Source of the DNA: Shigella phage SP18
Direction: 5' to 3' (one strand)
Length of the DNA stretch: 64,000 bases
Sequence record: GQ981382
Part shown: positions 11,459 through 60,172 of the stretch, one piece after another
How positions within the stretch are numbered: position 1 is the stretch's first letter
How the letters are laid out: every line of letters begins with the position of its first letter
The notes under the pieces: model-generated
The model's input: only the letters and a program-made list of their open reading frames with translations
What the model was told of the DNA's origin: nothing
Database searches by the model: none
Program-made: the position numbers and the translations under genes

Positions 11459-12073
11459 TCAGTAAGAAAGAACGGAAAGATTCCATAATTTATAGTCTTC
11501 CCATCTATAAATGCTCTCAATAGAGTCCACGCGTAGCGTAGTTCCCGCAGGGAACATCATCTCATCTTCATCATTTACTAATTGCAAGTTTGAAGAACGA
11601 GTTATTTCAGGATATAGTCCATTGAACTCTTCAGGAGGTGCCGCACAAATCATTTTAAAAATCGCTTCCTGATAATCAAATGCGAATGGTGCATCATTAA
11701 TACAGAAAATATTTTTGGTTCCATAGAAGCTAAAGGAAGCAAAGTTACGCGCAACACTGAAATCTTTGGAGAAACTCATTACACGGTCAAACTCAATCGT
11801 AGCACCAACACATCCTACGGTTTCAAGATATGCCAAAGTTTTCTTAGAAATCCCGCGATATAACTTACCAGGCACAGCAGAAGTCAAATTCTTACGAATA
11901 ATTTTGTTCAAAGTTTCCTGGATAGTGTCTGGCTTATTTTCCATGCACTGCCAGAGTGTACTCTGTTCCAACTCAGAGTAAATTTCATCAATTTCAATCT
12001 GGGTATTTTCACGAAAATATTCACATTTAACTGCATTGATGTACTCTGCTAATTGGTGACTTGCGTACAGCAT
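11459..12073 (-). CDS. modA: ADP-ribosyltransferase ModA-like
   Basis: about 204 aa after trimming promoter leader; ART motifs (YRG, SFS, downstream acidic residues); A versus B label is positional. Confidence 0.65.
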   Translation of the reverse strand: MLYASHQLAEYINAVKCEYFRENTQIEIDEIYSELEQSTLWQCMENKPDTIQETLNKIIRKNLTSAVPGKLYRGISKKTLAYLETVGCVGATIEFDRVMSFSKDFSVARNFASFSFYGTKNIFCINDAPFAFDYQEAIFKMICAAPPEEFNGLYPEITRSSNLQLVNDEDEMMFPAGTTLRVDSIESIYRWEDYKLWNLSVLSY

Positions 12074-12104
12074 TTTATTATCCTCATCAGTAGTTGATAG
12101 GAAC

Positions 12105-12134
12105 ATATTAACGTGTCTTATTGCTCTTGTACAC
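12105..12134 (-). promoter_or_regulatory. early promoter with conserved leader, driving modA-like gene
   Basis: GTGTAC -35, TTAATAT -10, leader ATCAACTACTGATGAGG. Confidence 0.5.
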
Positions 12135-12678
12135 AGTCAAGAACATAATAATCACCAACAAATCCAGCATCAACTATCACGAATTTCTGGTCAACTGGAA
12201 CAAACCATTCAAGCTCAGAATCAATCATGTCCATGTATTCTTCACGTCTTAACGTTGCTGCCTGTTCGGAACCAGAAGCTGTATTGAAGAATTCCAGTGG
12301 AACATCAAGCGCGAGCTTACGCATTGCATCATGGTAACAAAAAGCTTTGGTCTGATTCAATCTGACGATAGTCCTAGTCACATATTCCATTGCAGCAAAA
12401 TCCCTGGCAATACCATAGTCTTCTGTAAAGGAGGTTATCCTTCCAAATTCAAAAGGTTTCATTGATTCTTTTGCTTCATCTAACAAATCAATCTCTTGCT
12501 GGGTAACCCCACGATACAAGACTGTATCAGGTACAGATAACCTTGACTTGATGATTGAGTTAACGTTTGAATGCAAGGTCTTATCGACTTTTGATGTGCG
12601 GCATTCAAATAATGAAGCTATCTCCATTTCACTAAATTTTAACTGGTTGGGTTCGGTATCAGATTTGATGATGTTCAT
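12118..12678 (-). CDS. modB: ADP-ribosyltransferase ModB-like
   Basis: 186 aa; ART motifs (LYRGV, SFT); paralog of adjacent modA-like gene. Confidence 0.65.
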   Translation of the reverse strand: MNIIKSDTEPNQLKFSEMEIASLFECRTSKVDKTLHSNVNSIIKSRLSVPDTVLYRGVTQQEIDLLDEAKESMKPFEFGRITSFTEDYGIARDFAAMEYVTRTIVRLNQTKAFCYHDAMRKLALDVPLEFFNTASGSEQAATLRREEYMDMIDSELEWFVPVDQKFVIVDAGFVGDYYVLDCVQEQ

Positions 12679-17643: not shown

Positions 17644-18003
17644 TTAACCTCGCTTCATGAAGGCATTAAAAATCTGGTCATCAATATCAGTAGGCGGTTC
17701 TTGAGCTTTGACCCAAGCCCCTTCCAGAATGTCATTTGCTTCAGTAGATATCATGACCCCAATTTCAGGGTTTCCGGTTATCCATACTGCACAATCGCGG
17801 ACATTCTTTTTATCAAATGGATAACCACGATTATCTTCACAAGGCCCATTCATTGTCATAAATGAACGAGCCTTTATGATAACATCATCTTTAACGATAA
17901 TATAACCAATCGCCTGATTATAACGAGGCTCACGAAATTCATAGTGAGCATTACCATTATTATTGCTCACCAGTTCAAAATTCAGAAAATTATAATAACT
18001 CAT
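17644..18003 (-). CDS. hypothetical protein with C-terminal DDQIFNAFMKRG tail
   Basis: 119 aa; shares about 40-bp 3' coding segment with the adjacent upstream gene. Confidence 0.5.
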   Translation of the reverse strand: MSYYNFLNFELVSNNNGNAHYEFREPRYNQAIGYIIVKDDVIIKARSFMTMNGPCEDNRGYPFDKKNVRDCAVWITGNPEIGVMISTEANDILEGAWVKAQEPPTDIDDQIFNAFMKRG

Positions 18004-18004
18004 A

Positions 18005-18445
18005 TTAATCTCGCTTCATGAAGGCATTAAAAATTTGGTCGTCAACTGAATATACAGGGGTTTCCAGAAGTTTCAAAAGACTGTTTTTAATGTACTTACC
18101 CGGGATACCCATATTAACAATACTGTCATTCAATTCATTATCAGGGTTGATGTCTTTAAATTCAAACCCATCAAATTCAACCTTGTCAGGAATACCATCA
18201 GCGAAAAAATAAACCAATTGGTGCATTGTATTGCGCGAAAATAATTTAGACTTGACCGCAATAAGTTCTTGCCAATGGTTTAATTCTTTGTTAAGAAGTT
18301 TATGAGCAAACGTAATTCTATTATCACTATCAACAAGAAAATAACCCAGGTATTGAATGGGTTCGTCGCTCCAAAACATCCTGTATGCTTGTGCATTTTG
18401 ATTTTTACAACGAAGTTTTTTGATAACTAGAGTTCTGTTAATCAT
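18005..18445 (-). CDS. hypothetical protein with C-terminal DDQIFNAFMKRD tail
   Basis: start trimmed to MINRTLVIKK to abut sp; about 146 aa. Confidence 0.5.
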   Translation of the reverse strand: MINRTLVIKKLRCKNQNAQAYRMFWSDEPIQYLGYFLVDSDNRITFAHKLLNKELNHWQELIAVKSKLFSRNTMHQLVYFFADGIPDKVEFDGFEFKDINPDNELNDSIVNMGIPGKYIKNSLLKLLETPVYSVDDQIFNAFMKRD

Positions 18446-18446
18446 T

Positions 18447-18740
18447 TTATTCACCTGTAACCCATTGAACAATCTTGCTGTTGTCAAATGAAGCATCGCA
18501 ATACAGAACATAGTTATACTGCATAACATCACCAGAAGTCAATTGGTCAGATACTTCTTTAACCATATCAGGACGGTCACGTTTAGTAATATTCATGATG
18601 TCAGCATAAATCTGATGTTCAACATCAGCCTGGTCAGCAGTCATGGACCACTCGCAAAGGTCTTTATCAAGTCCAGCAGTAACTGGAGCTGTGCCACATG
18701 ATGCTACGGTAAGAATTGCTGCGATTAATAACTTTTTCAT
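18447..18740 (-). CDS. sp: Spackle periplasmic protein (superinfection exclusion; inhibitor of gp5 lysozyme)
   Basis: 97 aa with signal peptide; DKDLCEWSMTADQ and MQYNYVLYCD motifs as in T4 Sp. Confidence 0.85.
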   Translation of the reverse strand: MKKLLIAAILTVASCGTAPVTAGLDKDLCEWSMTADQADVEHQIYADIMNITKRDRPDMVKEVSDQLTSGDVMQYNYVLYCDASFDNSKIVQWVTGE

Positions 18741-52262: not shown

Positions 52263-52545
52263 CTTCCAATTTTACCTTCATTAATTTAGCGTACTCTCTC
52301 GCCGCAGCTTTACCATCGCTTTTGCAGGTAATTTCAGTTTCGCATTGGCTTTTGTTGTTCCATTCAGTCTTGATAAACGCCCAGAACTGTTCGGATTGGT
52401 GTACGCTTGGTTCTTTGAATTGCGAATAAATCTTCATCGCACTATCTGCATATTGGGTAAACTTCCCATCTGTTGCAGAGGACAGATTTGGACCTAAACA
52501 GCCCAGGATTATTAGACTTAATGAAAGTCCTCGAATAAGGTCCAT
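52252..52545 (-). CDS. lipoprotein of unknown function
   Basis: 97 aa; signal peptide with lipobox LGC. Confidence 0.5.
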   Translation of the reverse strand: MDLIRGLSLSLIILGCLGPNLSSATDGKFTQYADSAMKIYSQFKEPSVHQSEQFWAFIKTEWNNKSQCETEITCKSDGKAAAREYAKLMKVKLEDEI

Positions 52546-52617
52546 AAGGACTCCTATTGTTGGTCATGATTACGCTTTGCAGCCTTAACATAGCGGAATA
52601 CTAGTTAGTAACTGTAT

Positions 52618-52893
52618 TTATAGACGTTTAAAATTAAAGCAGTACTCTGAAAATAAACCTGCAAAATTACGTTCAACCCAGACCCGTTGTTTTGGACTGG
52701 TGACCGTTGACAAATAGTATGCTTGTTGCAGGCTTATTCCGTTTTTATTGGGGCACTCTTTGTTGAACGAGTGATAGGTACTTGCAACGATTTCGACTTC
52801 GCGCTCATACCTTTCCTGGTCCTGTTGCATAGGAACAAAAACCAAAACCAGGAATATCAAAATAGAGATATACGTCCAAACCTTGTATACCAT
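52618..52893 (-). CDS. membrane-anchored hypothetical protein
   Basis: 91 aa with N-terminal TM helix. Confidence 0.5.
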   Translation of the reverse strand: MVYKVWTYISILIFLVLVFVPMQQDQERYEREVEIVASTYHSFNKECPNKNGISLQQAYYLSTVTSPKQRVWVERNFAGLFSEYCFNFKRL

Positions 52894-52900
52894 GTGAACC

Positions 52901-53473
52901 TCAGCTTGTTAATTCGAGCCAATGTTTTCTGCACAAAGATACGTACGATTCATTCCCACCGACCAATACTTGCTCGCCGTCCTTTACAGCAGCACCGTCG
53001 ATTACTCGAGCGGTCATGGTTGCTTTCCGGCCGCAATGGCAGACGCCCTTTAATTCAACCAGTTTATCCGAAATAGCCAGAAGTCTGGCCGAACCGGGAA
53101 ATAATTGACCCCGAAAATCTGTTCTTAACCCGTAACACATAACGGGGATATTGTAATTATCAACCACTTGAGCTAACTGGTCAATTTGCTCTGGTAACAA
53201 AAATTGAGCTTCATCGACCAGGACACAATGGATATCCTTTTGAGACTCGGCCCATTTATAGAATTCAAACAGGTTCATGTCGGCCGTTACCAGGTTTGCT
53301 TCCTGGCTAATACCGATGCGTGATTTAATTTCGCCTTCCGAGTCCCGATTATCAATAACAGGTTTTAGCAAAAGCACACTCATTCCACGCTCTTTATAGG
53401 AATAAGCTGCAGTCAGCAATGAAGCTGTTTTGCCTGCATTCATTGCTGCGTAATGATAAATTAAACTCGCCAT
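52901..53473 (-). CDS. tk: thymidine kinase
   Basis: 190 aa; P-loop MNAGKT, VDEAQF box and C-terminal zinc-ribbon cysteines. Confidence 0.9.
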   Translation of the reverse strand: MASLIYHYAAMNAGKTASLLTAAYSYKERGMSVLLLKPVIDNRDSEGEIKSRIGISQEANLVTADMNLFEFYKWAESQKDIHCVLVDEAQFLLPEQIDQLAQVVDNYNIPVMCYGLRTDFRGQLFPGSARLLAISDKLVELKGVCHCGRKATMTARVIDGAAVKDGEQVLVGGNESYVSLCRKHWLELTS

Positions 53474-53482
53474 ATCACCTTC

Positions 53483-53668
53483 TTAAAGCGTATTCACATA
53501 AGCTATTAATTCGTTTTCTTTCGCATCAAATCGATTAGCAAATTCTTCCTGATGTTCGGCATCTATTGGACCGTATTCATCATAAAAGGCGTTTGCTTCT
53601 GTATGCTCATCCAAAAGCTCATGGATAAGCTCAAATAATCTACTTTTCTGACTAATGCTTAAACTCAT
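53483..53668 (-). CDS. small hypothetical acidic protein
   Basis: 61 aa ORF. Confidence 0.4.
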   Translation of the reverse strand: MSLSISQKSRLFELIHELLDEHTEANAFYDEYGPIDAEHQEEFANRFDAKENELIAYVNTL

Positions 53669-53892
53669 TTCGGTTCCCCATATCGCACAAATTTAGGATG
53701 TTCGCAATAACCAGAATGAAAACCTTCACCCTTATGATTGGAACACCCTTTATTGGAACAGTACCACCAGTAATCATATTCGCAATTCATTTCATCGTTG
53801 CATAAAGCTGCGATTACTGGCCATTCACATTTTTCACATTTGGCCGTTTTAAGAATTCGGGCTTGGCTCATAACCATTGCACCTTTAAGCAA
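53665..53892 (-). CDS. small Cys-rich zinc-binding-like protein
   Basis: 75 aa with about 9 cysteines (CEKCEW...CSNKGCSNH...CEHP). Confidence 0.45.
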   Translation of the reverse strand: MLKGAMVMSQARILKTAKCEKCEWPVIAALCNDEMNCEYDYWWYCSNKGCSNHKGEGFHSGYCEHPKFVRYGEPK

Positions 53893-54080
53893 TATTCTTC
53901 TACGTGCTGTTTACGTTTATTTTTATCTATAAAAGTATATTCAACATATTCACCGATATACCATTTATCAGTGTTGTGTTGACTTTTTATAGGACATTTG
54001 GTTACTCGAGTTTCGGTCCAGCGTCGAATAATTTCCGCTTTGTTTTTAGGGTCAAACGGATGTGGGTAATGTGCTTTCAT
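53868..54080 (-). CDS. small hypothetical protein
   Basis: 70 aa ORF. Confidence 0.4.
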   Translation of the reverse strand: MKAHYPHPFDPKNKAEIIRRWTETRVTKCPIKSQHNTDKWYIGEYVEYTFIDKNKRKQHVEEYCLKVQWL

Positions 54081-54531
54081 AATCCACCACTATTAAATCA
54101 ATGTCAGGAGTAAACATATCAATTAATTGAGATACCTTATCCCAATCACCACCAGCAATACCACAACCAATACGTGGAATATAAATTACCGGTTTAAACA
54201 AAAGGGTTTCTGCTTGTAGATTTAATTCTATCATACAATTTACTAAAGCGCCATAATCAAGATTAGGGCCTGGTTCGTATTGCGTATACAAGTTATAGCA
54301 CATGCCAAAACCTGTAGGCTTATGTTTAAAAACAATAGACATATCGCCTAATTTATCACGAGAACCGTATTCAGTAGTGGTTTTATCTATTTCTAAAACT
54401 TTTGGATAAGCCTTCGCCAACTGTCCAGCTACACCGGAACCCATTGTATGAAAGCAGTTGCAACCATGTGCAATAATATTGCCTTGAAGAAAGAGGGCGA
54501 CGATATCGCCCTTAATATACTGGGTAATCAT
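54052..54531 (-). CDS. macro-domain protein (ADP-ribose binding/processing fold)
   Basis: 159 aa; glycine-rich signatures (HGCNCFHTMGSGVAGQL; IGCGIAGGDW) typical of macro domains; called by eye. Confidence 0.55.
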   Translation of the reverse strand: MITQYIKGDIVALFLQGNIIAHGCNCFHTMGSGVAGQLAKAYPKVLEIDKTTTEYGSRDKLGDMSIVFKHKPTGFGMCYNLYTQYEPGPNLDYGALVNCMIELNLQAETLLFKPVIYIPRIGCGIAGGDWDKVSQLIDMFTPDIDLIVVDYESTLPTSV

Positions 54532-54887
54532 TTAGAGTTCAATCCTCTATTATATGAATCCACTAACCTGTCAACCATACTGGTGCAGGCCGCCTTGTAT
54601 TTTGCACTTGATAGAATGCAATCCATTTCAAATAATTTCTTTTCATATTTGTTGGATAATACATTCTTTTTCAAAAGCGTATGTTCAACATCATTTTGAC
54701 CATCTTTATAGGCTGCGGTGAGCTTGGCACTGAACTGGATTATACAATCCACATTGCTTGCTGCGCAATAATCTTTAGCCGTCCTCGTTGCATATTCTAT
54801 GATGCTGTTGTTGTCGTCGCTCTGTACTGAAGCTATTCCTCCCATGCTGAATACTAACCCTATGACTAAAGTGATAACTCTTACCAT
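54528..54887 (-). CDS. secreted/periplasmic protein (Vs position)
   Basis: 119 aa with cleavable signal peptide. Confidence 0.5.
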   Translation of the reverse strand: MVRVITLVIGLVFSMGGIASVQSDDNNSIIEYATRTAKDYCAASNVDCIIQFSAKLTAAYKDGQNDVEHTLLKKNVLSNKYEKKLFEMDCILSSAKYKAACTSMVDRLVDSYNRGLNSK

Positions 54888-54889
54888 TT

Positions 54890-55432
54890 TTAATCCACCG
54901 TTTTTAATAGGCCTCGTGATTTTAAGTAGTTAGCTTTTTCTAGGACCTGTGAAGCATACTTATTACCAGCTTTCACATTCCATCCTGCGTTATATGATGA
55001 TAGCGTTTTTCTTATATCCCCCTTATGAATATTCAACCAGTATGAAAGCTCAATATAAGCCCAGCGTGCACTGTTCTCTCTCTTGCTTATCATCTTGATT
55101 ATTTCTTTATCTGTCATTGTCCACCCAACCTGTTTCACTCGTTCGCGTACGGTTGGAAGATAATTTTGGAATATACCATATGCATGATGCTTATCTTTAT
55201 TTAATCCAGTATTAACCCCAGCAGAACTTTCCTGCCAGGTTAAACCAGCCATGATATATCCCAAACCATTACGTTGGTGTGGATTTTCTTTGTACTTGCC
55301 ATTTTTCTGGAACTGTTCTCCAAACGCATAAGCATATTGAAGGTTCTCCATTTGTTCATTACTGAAAGTAGGCTCTACGCTATGGGCAGACATACTAACT
55401 GTCAATAGTAAGGTGGCGATTACTTTTTTCAT
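54890..55432 (-). CDS. secreted lysozyme-like / lytic transglycosylase-like protein (tentative)
   Basis: 180 aa with signal peptide; weak SLT-like E-S ... GIFQ motifs. Confidence 0.45.
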   Translation of the reverse strand: MKKVIATLLLTVSMSAHSVEPTFSNEQMENLQYAYAFGEQFQKNGKYKENPHQRNGLGYIMAGLTWQESSAGVNTGLNKDKHHAYGIFQNYLPTVRERVKQVGWTMTDKEIIKMISKRENSARWAYIELSYWLNIHKGDIRKTLSSYNAGWNVKAGNKYASQVLEKANYLKSRGLLKTVD

Positions 55433-55442
55433 GAATTCCCCA

Positions 55443-55901
55443 TTAGATATAAATCACTTTTGTGCTAATTTTTCCTTCCAGACGATTAGAGTTAACAAAC
55501 GCCATACGACAACACATGGTTGGAGACTTCCCAGGAATAGCTGGATTAACTGTCATTCCTAACCATAGGTTCTTGTCTGTGATTTCCAGACGAAGTGGAC
55601 GGTAGTTCACATTCGGGTCAATTTGTGCTTCAACTTCCGGGAGTGGTTTCATCTCCAGGAATTCAACGATTTCTTTTACATGTGGTGTGATTTTTCCAAA
55701 CAAGTCAAAAACATATTGTTCATCAATTTCACGTTGGATTGCACGGTCCAATAGGTGTGGACTGTACTTAATGAAGAATACTTCAAGGCCTGCTTCTTTA
55801 CAAGCCTTGTTGATAGCATTATTAATTTTGAGGAACTCCGTTTCAAAAATGCGACGAAGTTTATTGCGGCGAATGTAAACACTTGAATCGATAGTAGTCA
55901 T
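55443..55901 (-). CDS. regB: RegB sequence-specific endoribonuclease
   Basis: about 152 aa from MTTIDSSVYIRRNKLRR; HLLDRAIQREIDE and YRPLRLEITDKNLWLG match T4 RegB. Confidence 0.85.
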   Translation of the reverse strand: MTTIDSSVYIRRNKLRRIFETEFLKINNAINKACKEAGLEVFFIKYSPHLLDRAIQREIDEQYVFDLFGKITPHVKEIVEFLEMKPLPEVEAQIDPNVNYRPLRLEITDKNLWLGMTVNPAIPGKSPTMCCRMAFVNSNRLEGKISTKVIYI

Positions 55902-55928
55902 GATTATCTCCTTTTGTTTGATGGGATA

Positions 55929-56537
<609 letters not shown>

Positions 56538-56541
<4 letters not shown>

Positions 56542-56771
56542 TTCACTTCCTCGCCAGTTGCGATATCATATTCTACCAAACGAAGGCCTTCAGTCCAACC
56601 TTGCACGGAGATATAGGTAGACGGGTAAATCATTTCTTTACCATTCCACCGACCGCCATCCCAGACTTCCAGAAAGTCTTGTTCACCTGGTCCATTAAAC
56701 CATTCAACAAATCTTTTCAGAGCTTCATCAGAGCCTTCAATTGTCAATTTAGACATATTTTTTCCAGTCAC
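56538..56771 (-). CDS. hypothetical protein
   Basis: 77 aa ORF. Confidence 0.45.
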
Positions 56772-57045
56772 TAATTAATCGCACATCCTGGTCATAGGTC
56801 AGGAGGCTACGAGTGATAATACCCTTACACGGTCCAGAAATAAATTCCAGAGTAAAGTAAGGAACCTGTTTCATTAATCGGATACTTGGAGCATGACATC
56901 TAAAACGAGAGCCCTTAAAGGGCCCTGACATGAATACATATTCTAATGGATAGAAATAAGCATATTCAAAATTTGTAGTAAGGTCCTCTCTTCGGACCTT
57001 ACGTGAGAAATAACAGAACTCAAAAAGTTCTTCATCAGTCATCAT
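56749..57045 (-). CDS. hypothetical protein
   Basis: 98 aa ORF. Confidence 0.45.
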   Translation of the reverse strand: MMTDEELFEFCYFSRKVRREDLTTNFEYAYFYPLEYVFMSGPFKGSRFRCHAPSIRLMKQVPYFTLEFISGPCKGIITRSLLTYDQDVRLISDWKKYV

Positions 57046-57569
57046 TGCATTCCTATCACAAAGAACAGTGGCAGAGGTTTAGAACCTTGGCACATAAATT
57101 TATTCATCATTGTCTGATAAGCTTCATAGAACTTATCCATCGCTGGTAGGCGAATAGGCTCTTCAATAATAATCAATAATCGGGTAACAGACAGTCCACG
57201 ATATTTGTGAAAATGATCTTCATCTAAAAATGAACGAACAGTATCATATACAACAAAACCAGGTCGTTCAACATTAAGATGTGGCTGTGCTTTAGAAACC
57301 CGCTTTATTATATCACAGATTTCTCGTGAGCGATGCGAAGAACTCGACATAACAATCACATCATTACCTTTGGAAACCCAATCCGCAGCAAACTGTGCAA
57401 TGGCACTTGTTTTACCTGTTTGTCGCCCACCGTCAAGTCTCAGAGTGCCAAACTCTTGCATTCTTGAAGCGGGTTCATACCAGGTGTATTGGTCTGAATC
57501 TAAACGTTCAATGGCGCGTTCAGCGAAGGCGTGCATTAAGGTTAGATAAATGGGAGTTAAAAATTTCAT
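57042..57569 (-). CDS. P-loop NTPase of unknown function
   Basis: 175 aa; Walker A GGRQTGKTS and Walker B-like LLIIIEEP. Confidence 0.55.
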   Translation of the reverse strand: MKFLTPIYLTLMHAFAERAIERLDSDQYTWYEPASRMQEFGTLRLDGGRQTGKTSAIAQFAADWVSKGNDVIVMSSSSHRSREICDIIKRVSKAQPHLNVERPGFVVYDTVRSFLDEDHFHKYRGLSVTRLLIIIEEPIRLPAMDKFYEAYQTMMNKFMCQGSKPLPLFFVIGMQ

Positions 57570-57730
57570 AATTGTCTCTTAGTTGGTGGGGCCGTTCCTT
57601 GGCACATAATTCATCCATGTATCCGTATGTAAACCCTTTACCGCACTTGGGCTCGACCTTATTACAGGTAGGGAAAGGTCCATCACTCAGAGGACGCGAC
57701 GTTCATGAGGAGAGGGCCGGCTTGCCTTTA

Positions 57731-58030
57731 TTAGAAAGAACCAGAGCCTTTAATTGTGTTCTGGCGACCTTTATTTTCTAATTCAGAATGGTCAATTTCA
57801 TATGCTTGTGCTACACCAAAAGCCTTTTTAACTTTAGCTAAAGAACCTTTAGATGTAACAATATTAAAAGTATTACCTTTGGTAAAATCAACCAAATCCA
57901 CTTGTACACCTTGTTTACCGAGGCTTGCGACAATAGCATCAACATATTGTTGGTCTAAATTGCCCTGGACTCCAATTTGGAATGCTTTAGGAGCTTTAGC
58001 TTCTGTGATAAATTCTTGATAAGTTTTCAT
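57731..58030 (-). CDS. internal protein (IP) with capsid-targeting sequence, cargo of unknown function
   Basis: 99 aa; N-terminus MKTYQEFITEA matches the T4 IP capsid-targeting/cleavage motif; own early promoter. Confidence 0.7.
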   Translation of the reverse strand: MKTYQEFITEAKAPKAFQIGVQGNLDQQYVDAIVASLGKQGVQVDLVDFTKGNTFNIVTSKGSLAKVKKAFGVAQAYEIDHSELENKGRQNTIKGSGSF

Positions 58031-58055
58031 TTATTCTCTCCAAGTTGATGGGATA

Positions 58056-58084
58056 ATTATGCACTATCCCATCAAAAAGTAAAC
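58056..58084 (-). promoter_or_regulatory. early promoter (GTTTAC -35, CATAAT -10) for the first IP gene
   Basis: GTTTACtttttgatgggatagtgCATAATtatcccatcaacttggagagaataa-ATG. Confidence 0.55.
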
Positions 58085-58086
58085 AG

Positions 58087-58350
58087 TTATGCTTTACCGC
58101 CAGAAACAATACCAAAGGTCTCAAAGTCCCATTCAATATCGTCAACATCAACTTTCTTACCAGCAACCACGAATGCGATTTCGCGACGTTTTGCATAGGT
58201 GACAATTTCTTTACCGTCACCACCAAAGAAAGAATAACCATTGCGCTTCATGGTGCCAAAGTCTTCAGCATCACCAGCAAACGCGCGGACTTTAAAGGAA
58301 CCGGCAGGAGCTTTAGTAGATTCAGTAATAAATTCTTGATAAGTTTTCAT
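58087..58350 (-). CDS. internal protein (IP) with capsid-targeting sequence, cargo of unknown function
   Basis: 87 aa; N-terminus MKTYQEFITES; 13 nt downstream of the preceding IP gene. Confidence 0.7.
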   Translation of the reverse strand: MKTYQEFITESTKAPAGSFKVRAFAGDAEDFGTMKRNGYSFFGGDGKEIVTYAKRREIAFVVAGKKVDVDDIEWDFETFGIVSGGKA

Positions 58351-59713: not shown

Positions 59714-60172
59714 TTATCCGAAAATTTGAGTCAGTACCTTATACATCGATTTGCCCATCACGTACTGCCATTGGCTCGGTTTAATCAGAGCAAACGCATC
59801 AAACTCTGGGACCGAACTGCCATCCGGGAAGGTATGATAGGCAGAGCATTTACTATGTCTGAACTGCTCATGCTCGACCGGAACCGTGTACAAAAACAGG
59901 TGAAGGTTTTTATTATCTGAATAACGGAACTCACCGAGGTCTTTTAAGAATGCTGGGTCATATTGGGTAAACCCGGTTTCTTCTTCGGTTTCACGGATAG
60001 CAGCTTCAATCGGGGATTCATCAGCTTCAACATGACCCTTAGGGATGTCCCATTTGTGCGCAGGCATACCTGGTTTACGAGAACCGGTCACACGACCCAT
60101 GAATAACTCTTTATCTTCAGTCATGAAAATAATGCCAGCAGATAATTCTTTCACCTTGTTTTTCTTACTCAT
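59714..60172 (-). CDS. nudE: Nudix hydrolase NudE
   Basis: 152 aa; Nudix box GHVEADESPIEAAIRETEEETG; position after e. Confidence 0.85.
   Translation of the reverse strand: MSKKNKVKELSAGIIFMTEDKELFMGRVTGSRKPGMPAHKWDIPKGHVEADESPIEAAIRETEEETGFTQYDPAFLKDLGEFRYSDNKNLHLFLYTVPVEHEQFRHSKCSAYHTFPDGSSVPEFDAFALIKPSQWQYVMGKSMYKVLTQIFG

Follow-up and report, generated by a model that had tools for sequence, protein, structure and literature searches.

In the 64,000-nucleotide (64-kb) stretch of Shigella phage SP18 DNA analysed here (sequence record GQ981382; hereafter the window), the open reading frame (ORF) at 54052..54531 on the minus strand is the syntenic ortholog of T4 tk.4, a gene also named adfM for anti-DarT factor, macrodomain. 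It encodes a stand-alone macrodomain of 159 amino acids (aa) that probably acts as an anti-DarT2 enzyme, hydrolysing thymidine-linked ADP-ribose (thymidine-ADPr) in single-stranded phage DNA. DarTG2 is a bacterial defence that ADP-ribosylates DNA, and the T4 copy of tk.4/adfM protects against it (bioRxiv 10.1101/2025.11.20.689424). The window ortholog would be expected to counter DarTG2 like its T4 counterpart, and thymidine-ADPr hydrolysis is suggested as its chemistry by this orthology together with the conservation of its active site.

A macrodomain of the ALC1-like class

The ORF runs from ATG to stop and specifies a protein of 17.5 kDa, in which a first-pass annotation, made by reading the sequence, had recognized a macrodomain on account of glycine-rich loops. 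Both the domain and the loops were borne out. The protein matched the Pfam Macro family (PF01661; E 5.4e-8 and 33.2 bits, above the gathering score of 22, over positions 2-117 of a 118-position profile) as well as phrog_335, labelled 'phosphatase' (E 6.9e-71), and residues 30-35 (MGSGVA) and 119-130 (PRIGCGIAGGDW) form two glycine-rich loops in the translation. Its AlphaFold2 model, obtained with a mean predicted local distance difference test (pLDDT) score of 93.2 and a predicted template modelling (pTM) score of 0.88, displays the three-layer alpha/beta/alpha architecture of macrodomains, built on a central mixed sheet and bearing glycine-rich loops for ADP-ribose binding. When the model was submitted to Foldseek, the best match was TARG1 (E 2e-10, template modelling (TM) score 0.73-0.82). 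Based on both structure and sequence, the protein fits the ALC1-like class, represented by TARG1, DarG, SCO6735 and Poa1p, better than the MacroD-type, viral, PARG or macroH2A macrodomains. Profile matches were obtained with BT1257 (5e-19), TARG1 (1e-16), SCO6735 (1e-15) and DarG (2e-12), the last of which was also matched weakly in NCBIfam and PADLOC.

Database searches revealed relatives of the 159-aa protein in 2750 of 50,697 phage records (tblastn), and 15 columns were invariant in an alignment of 65 sequences of this phage family. These observations show, far beyond chance, that the macrodomain ORF is a genuine gene and not a fortuitous reading frame. An identical protein is encoded in the record of phage P896.

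Orthology and synteny with T4 tk.4

T4 Tk.4 (NP_049723) and the window protein align without gaps over 155 aa, with 57% identity and 74% positives (E 1e-69), and the region 54052-54531 was the sole match to Tk.4 in the window when T4 proteins were used as tblastn queries. Escherichia phage 212 and UPEC07 (the latter a Gaprivervirus; Straboviridae, Tevenvirinae) match the tk-regB region of the window at 98.6% and 95% identity, respectively. On the minus strand, this region comprises tk (52901-53473), a tk.2-like gene, an extra Phage_zn_bind ORF, tk.3, the macrodomain gene, vs, vs.1, regB, vs.3 and vs.4, and the succession tk, tk.2, tk.3, tk.4, vs, vs.1, regB, vs.3, vs.4 is common to T4 and the window. 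The position of the macrodomain gene between tk.3 and vs was the same in the three sources on which this synteny is based, namely the T4 map, the tblastn mapping of T4 neighbour proteins onto the window, and the UPEC07 annotation. The placement of the gene in the tk-regB region by the first-pass annotation is thus upheld by synteny with T4.

The start codon of the macrodomain gene shares an ATGA motif (54528..54531, minus strand) with the stop codon of vs, the gene upstream. The motif was read directly from the sequence, and this 4-nucleotide overlap is identical in T4. Since 57% identity is combined with the exact position of tk.4, down to the overlap with vs, the window ORF is identified as its ortholog. 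The ATGA arrangement further suggests translational coupling of vs and tk.4 inside one transcript.

The orthologs of tk.4 have been credited with an A1pp (macro) domain since 2006 (PMC1524935), and the T4 RefSeq entry for Tk.4 reads 'phosphatase; contains A1pp phosphatase motif'. In a 2025 preprint, tk.4 was the single significant hit when T4 transposon libraries (HIDEN-SEQ) were challenged with DarTG2, a clean T4 tk.4 knockout was DarTG2-sensitive, the gene was named adfM, and its product was proposed, from structure alone, to strip ADP-ribose from DNA (bioRxiv 10.1101/2025.11.20.689424).

The older labels would suit a small-molecule enzyme that disposes of soluble by-products derived from NAD, through ADP-ribose-1''-phosphate phosphatase or O-acetyl-ADP-ribose deacetylase activity. 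Besides the terms 'phosphatase' and 'A1pp' attached to T4 Tk.4 in RefSeq and to phrog_335, this role is consistent with an HxCNC motif that the window protein has in common with yeast Poa1p, and with a survey of viral NAD and ADP-ribose metabolism according to which soluble ADP-ribose derivatives may be the substrates of many phage Macro domains (PMC9503650). We nevertheless regard it as unlikely, as the 'phosphatase' label derives from an old SMART domain name and not from an assay (PMC1524935), while the phenotype of the T4 knockout is specific to DarTG2 and the gene is otherwise dispensable (bioRxiv 10.1101/2025.11.20.689424). In addition, the window, which is the part of the genome that was searched, encodes neither a KptA/Tpt1 nor a sirtuin partner able to supply substrates of this kind.

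A Gln-type active site

The active site was delineated in an alignment of the window protein with T4 Tk.4, BT1257, SCO6735, TARG1, two DarG macrodomains and PhiKZ gp104. Fold prediction and an inspection of catalytic residues had been proposed along with the first-pass annotation as a check on the macrodomain; besides the predicted macro fold, they yielded residues of the SCO6735 type at H22, N25, Q84, G122 and G124. The first motif, spanning residues 22-35 (HGCNCFHTMGSGVA; 54427..54468, minus strand; translation checked), contains His22, Asn25 and the first glycine loop, on the substrate/ribose side of the cleft. H22, G23, N25, C26, G33 and A35 are invariant in the 65 phage-family sequences, N25 aligning with Asn27 and H22 with His24 of SCO6735. 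The diphosphate-binding glycine loop PRIGCGIAGGDW, at residues 119-130 (54142..54177, minus strand; translation checked), has P119, G122, G124 and W130 invariant in the same family; G122 and G124 correspond to Gly126 and Gly128 of SCO6735, and Ala126 to Asp125 of TARG1.

Between these two regions, the motif NLYTQ (residues 80-84; 54280..54294, minus strand) brings Gln84 to the catalytic position according to the alignment. Q84 aligns with Gln85 of SCO6735 and the corresponding Gln of BT1257, and with Lys84 of TARG1, Lys80 of DarG and a Lys of PhiKZ gp104. It is invariant in 65 of 65 phage-family sequences and in 80 of 80 bacterial relatives (see below), where its conservation is independent of the search because Q84 was absent from the patterns that fetched those loci. 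The catalytic Gln and the Asn locking it, which characterize the Gln-type subclass, are both present, Q84/N25 corresponding to Q85/N27 of SCO6735. The longer mobile loop of the SCO6735/BT1257 subclass is missing, the loop after the Gln having the length found in TARG1 and DarG. Neither the Lys84/Asp125 catalytic pair of TARG1 (Gln84/Ala126 in the window protein) nor the catalytic lysine of DarG (Lys80 in T. aquaticus DarG; Gln84 in the window protein) is conserved. With Gln rather than Lys at the catalytic position, the T-even AdfM family is more similar to SCO6735 than to DarG.

In vitro, SCO6735 outpaces both DarG and TARG1 in clearing the thymidine-ADPr that DarT produces, and it also rescues cells exposed to DarT; its activity is abolished by the Q85A mutation and nearly so by N27S, Asn27 being required (PMC9411070). 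The range of these enzymes extends beyond DNA, since TARG1 and SCO6735 also remove Glu/Asp-linked ADP-ribose from proteins (PMC9411070), and uracil-linked ADP-ribose on RNA is a further substrate of TARG1-like enzymes, SCO6735 and DarG among them (PMC13036486).

Proposed mechanism of the window macrodomain

The macrodomain gene would be transcribed from the minus strand with the neighbouring tk-vs genes, giving rise to an early-expressed ADP-ribosylglycohydrolase. As host DarT2 attaches ADP-ribose to thymidine in single-stranded phage DNA, the macrodomain would bind that ADP-ribose and hydrolyse the N-glycosidic bond, freeing ADP-ribose and leaving a de-ADP-ribosylated template that would again be fit for replication and packaging. 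Catalysis of the SCO6735 type is probable, in which Asn25 would hold Gln84 in place so that the latter can orient the distal ribose for water-mediated attack, unlike the Lys-based chemistry of DarG and TARG1.

Several points weigh against this mechanism. Hydrolysis by T4 Tk.4 was deduced from structure in the preprint, and specificity could differ in the window protein, which shares just 57% of its residues with T4 Tk.4. An isoelectric point (pI) of 4.9 makes it an acidic protein, which is unexpected for a DNA-binding surface. It also has a shorter mobile loop than SCO6735 and BT1257, and its N-terminal half is about as similar to yeast Poa1p as to DNA hydrolases. Finally, hydrolysis may be only part of the mechanism, since SCO6735 blocks DarT without catalysis too (PMC9411070).

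Pushed further, this last observation would make the macrodomain a stoichiometric inhibitor that binds DarT2 or its DNA site, with hydrolysis being secondary. The catalytically dead mutants SCO6735 Q85A, DarG K80A and TARG1 K84A all retain the ability to inhibit DarT in vitro, an effect that was strongest with SCO6735 (PMC9411070), and other phage anti-DarT factors work by binding, as illustrated by ICP1 AdfB (PMC11481870). Yet the catalysis residues are all invariant in phage and bacterial relatives, which suggests selection for enzymatic activity, and the 159-aa window protein has no equivalent of the C-terminal DarT-binding domain of DarG, whose NCBIfam profile (NF048014) it matches at 28 bits for a cutoff of 250, over profile positions 3-141 of 338 only. 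An action chiefly by binding is considered quite improbable.

Other ADP-ribose-related genes of the window

Thymidine-ADPr hydrolysis was also weighed against roles suggested by other genes of the window. Two Mod-like ADP-ribosyltransferase paralogs are encoded on the minus strand at 11459-12106 and 12118-12678. As the first-pass annotation had it, both are ADP-ribosyltransferases by their match to phrog_832 ('RNA polymerase ADP-ribosylase') and their 29-38% identity to T4 ModA/ModB; which of them is ModA and which ModB cannot be assigned from sequence, as each is about equally similar to both T4 proteins, and neither matched a Pfam ADP-ribosyltransferase (ART) family at E <=0.01. The NudE gene named in the same annotation (59714-60172) was likewise recovered, with 63% identity to T4 NudE and a match to Pfam NUDIX.

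The presence of two Mod-like ARTs in the same 64 kb is in line with a macrodomain that erases the phage's own marks, reversing the ADP-ribosylation or RNAylation of host proteins by Alt, ModA or ModB. That many large myoviruses encode ART, Macro, NADAR and Nudix genes together (PMC9503650) points in the same direction, as does the Glu/Asp-linked protein ADP-ribose cleared by TARG1 and SCO6735 (PMC9411070). However, T4 Alt/Mod enzymes modify arginine, with Alt/ModA targets such as Arg84 of MazF and Arg265 of the RNA polymerase alpha subunit (PMC8120803), whereas ALC1-like enzymes are documented on thymine-, uracil- and Glu/Asp-linked ADP-ribose, and not on Arg-linked ADP-ribose (PMC9411070, PMC13036486). 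The Mod-like genes and the macrodomain gene are not adjacent, and the T4 knockout has no reported phenotype in the absence of DarTG2, making such an eraser very unlikely. Of the earlier idea that the protein reverses ADP-ribosylation, the half that concerns host marks is retained, matching the anti-DarTG2 role of T4 tk.4, and the half that concerns the phage's own, Arg-linked Alt/Mod marks is disfavoured. The writer/eraser/degrader set that the first-pass annotation had imagined is likewise unsupported: ModA/ModB and NudE lie 42 kb and 5 kb away, respectively, in separate units, the Arg linkage falls outside the documented activity of the class, and nothing was found in the window that ties the ART, macrodomain and NudE genes into a functional module.

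A homolog of Vs.4/Acb2, the cyclic-oligonucleotide sponge countering CBASS, had been suspected among the ORFs at 55958-57045 and was located at 56263-56541 on the minus strand (64% identity to T4 Vs.4; Pfam Acb2_Tad1_hairpin, E 1.3e-15). The macrodomain gene stands two to three genes from this signal sponge, and Macro domains found in TIR systems are predicted to bind ligands of the cADPR type (PMC9503650), two facts compatible with a protein that breaks down or sequesters immune signals derived from ADP-ribose, for example gcADPR of Thoeris. This role, also raised in the first-pass annotation, is highly improbable: no evidence was found in support of signal degradation, the conserved catalytic residues fit a hydrolase of ADP-ribose linked to DNA or RNA bases, and genetic support is lacking, tk.4 having scored under DarTG2 (bioRxiv 10.1101/2025.11.20.689424).

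Bacterial relatives and origin of the family

A scan of 185,579 species genomes yielded 438 confirmed relatives, the best 80 of which (33-43% identity) were analysed. These 80 proteins are stand-alone; their median length is 155 aa. No DarT2 was detected within 4 kb of the best 80 of the 438 relatives by tblastn with a single query, P. aeruginosa DarT2 (nothing below E 0.68). The 105 flanking ORFs collected from 73 of the 80 loci represented 129 Pfam families, none of which recurred in more than three loci; DarT was not among the 25 most frequent of these families, a result that leaves room for a rare DarT neighbour. The hypothesis of an 'orphaned DarG' at the origin of the T-even AdfM family was therefore unsupported, in view of the absence of DarT linkage at the best 80 bacterial loci. 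Because its relatives are stand-alone and unlinked to DarT, the family looks like a widespread stand-alone macrodomain and not like an offshoot of DarTG operons.

More tentatively, T-even AdfM might represent a separate Gln-type stand-alone lineage, common to many bacteria, that acts as a broad-spectrum eraser of base-linked ADP-ribose, a possibility to which we give less than even credence. If true, its targets would be the thymine bases of DNA, the uracil bases of RNA and perhaps also Glu/Asp residues of proteins, and the phage enzyme would disarm several ADP-ribosylating toxins beyond DarT2, with NudE disposing of the ADP-ribose released.

NADAR proteins are the other known type of DNA ADP-ribose eraser. 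A NADAR-domain protein adjoined the stand-alone bacterial macrodomain in two of the 105 flanking ORFs, and DUF1810 and phosphoribosyl-pyrophosphate-synthetase-like neighbours were each encountered twice in the same set.

Neighbouring genes and side observations

Directly upstream of the macrodomain gene is the vs homolog (valyl-tRNA synthetase modifier; 54528..54887, minus strand), which is 45% identical to T4 Vs and whose position is conserved in T4 and UPEC07. Directly downstream is the tk.3 homolog (53868..54080, minus strand), with 71% identity to T4 Tk.3 and a match to Pfam DUF7202 (E 2.5e-37). Its first ATG is located 29 nucleotides within the 3' end of the macrodomain gene, the overlap at this junction being of 4 nucleotides in T4 and 14 in UPEC07. 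The 29-nucleotide overlap appears real, since the alignment with T4 Tk.3 starts at this first ATG and covers all 70 residues. Between the tk.2-like and tk.3-like genes lies an ORF of 75 aa (53665-53892, minus strand; Pfam Phage_zn_bind, E 2e-29) that had no match among the T4 tk/vs-region proteins used as tblastn queries; conversely, T4 tk.1 had no tblastn match in the window. An N-terminal extension of the vs.8 homolog, considered from tblastn results, was rejected as it crosses stop codons, and the 175-aa ORF stands.

A scan of positions 52500-58200 for regulatory signals was uninformative, with 18 promoter-like sites for 16.4 expected and 7 terminator-like sites for 3.8 +/- 2.2 expected. 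One of the latter, a GC-rich hairpin followed by a T-rich tail at 54494-54512 (minus strand), falls within codons 7-13 of the macrodomain gene and is probably fortuitous given these numbers.

Two adjacent small ORFs on the minus strand (17644-18003 and 18005-18532) lie between the primase and spackle genes, at the position of T4 61.2 (AdfA, an anti-DarT1 factor). Both end in DDQIFNAFMKR(G/D), and they belong to phrog_4122 and phrog_8539. T4 61.2 itself (phrog_3781) had no tblastn match in the window, and its match to phrog_4122 is weak (E 1.8e-6). Judging from their position and sequences, these ORFs may be diverged or split relatives of AdfA.

Comparison with known macrodomains

Earlier work had described the gene and its domain and, in T4, the anti-DarTG2 role, and GenBank already contained an identical protein. 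The present analysis adds the Gln-type active site and sets the protein apart from both DarG and the PhiKZ protein of the same name. The window ORF, together with many homologs recorded as 'phosphatase' or 'hypothetical', should be labelled as AdfM-type anti-DarT2 macrodomains, and the Gln-type active site could steer mutagenesis to Q84 and N25.

The closest characterized protein, T4 Tk.4/AdfM, belongs to the same length class (155 versus 159 aa) and has all active-site residues identical (H22, N25, T83-Q84, G122, G124 and W130). It differs at 43% of residues, including the diphosphate loop, which reads PRIGAGIGKGNW in T4 and PRIGCGIAGGDW in the window protein, and the anti-DarTG2 phenotype is one observed in T4 only. 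Streptomyces coelicolor SCO6735 (5E3B) and Bacteroides BT1257 (2FG1/2AFC) are two Gln-type ALC1-like proteins with 25-29% identity to the window protein. The mobile loop that follows their Gln, which defines their subclass, has 5-6 residues more than in the window protein, and Lys34 of SCO6735 is replaced by Ser32.

Human TARG1/OARD1 (4J5R/4J5S) removes thymine- and uracil-linked ADP-ribose (PMC13036486) using Lys84/Asp125, in place of which the window protein has Gln84/Ala126. The ADP-ribose-1''-phosphate phosphatase Poa1p of yeast (6LFQ), similar to the window protein in sequence and fold, has a soluble metabolite as substrate; the middle of the window protein cannot be aligned with it by sequence, and no link was seen between the window macrodomain gene and tRNA-splicing by-products. 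The DarG macrodomains of T. aquaticus (5M31/5M3E), M. tuberculosis (5M3I) and T. africanus (7OMU) are 20-22% identical to the window protein. Full-length DarG (about 340 aa in NF048014) carries its DarT-binding domain at the C-terminus and shares an operon with DarT, whereas the window macrodomain gene adjoins vs and tk.3, with no darT.

Among phage proteins, ICP1 AdfB was rejected as a relative, being a 77-aa binder and not a macrodomain. PhiKZ gp104, likewise named AdfM (Cell Rep 2026), clears DarT2-made ADP-ribose from DNA in vitro and requires a conserved Asn (PMC13309987). It is, like the window protein, a stand-alone phage macrodomain countering DarTG2, a role that for the latter is taken from the T4 ortholog. 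However, gp104 has a Lys at the catalytic position and is DarG-like (M. tuberculosis DarG, E 9e-25), and it shares about 21% identity with the window protein, BLASTP matching fragments only; its assignment to the same family was therefore rejected. By the same token, T4 Tk.4, which is of the Gln type, and PhiKZ gp104, which is of the Lys type, appear to represent different lineages and not one family, so that their common name is a source of confusion in annotation. Judging from these sequences, the two AdfM lineages would have been acquired separately.
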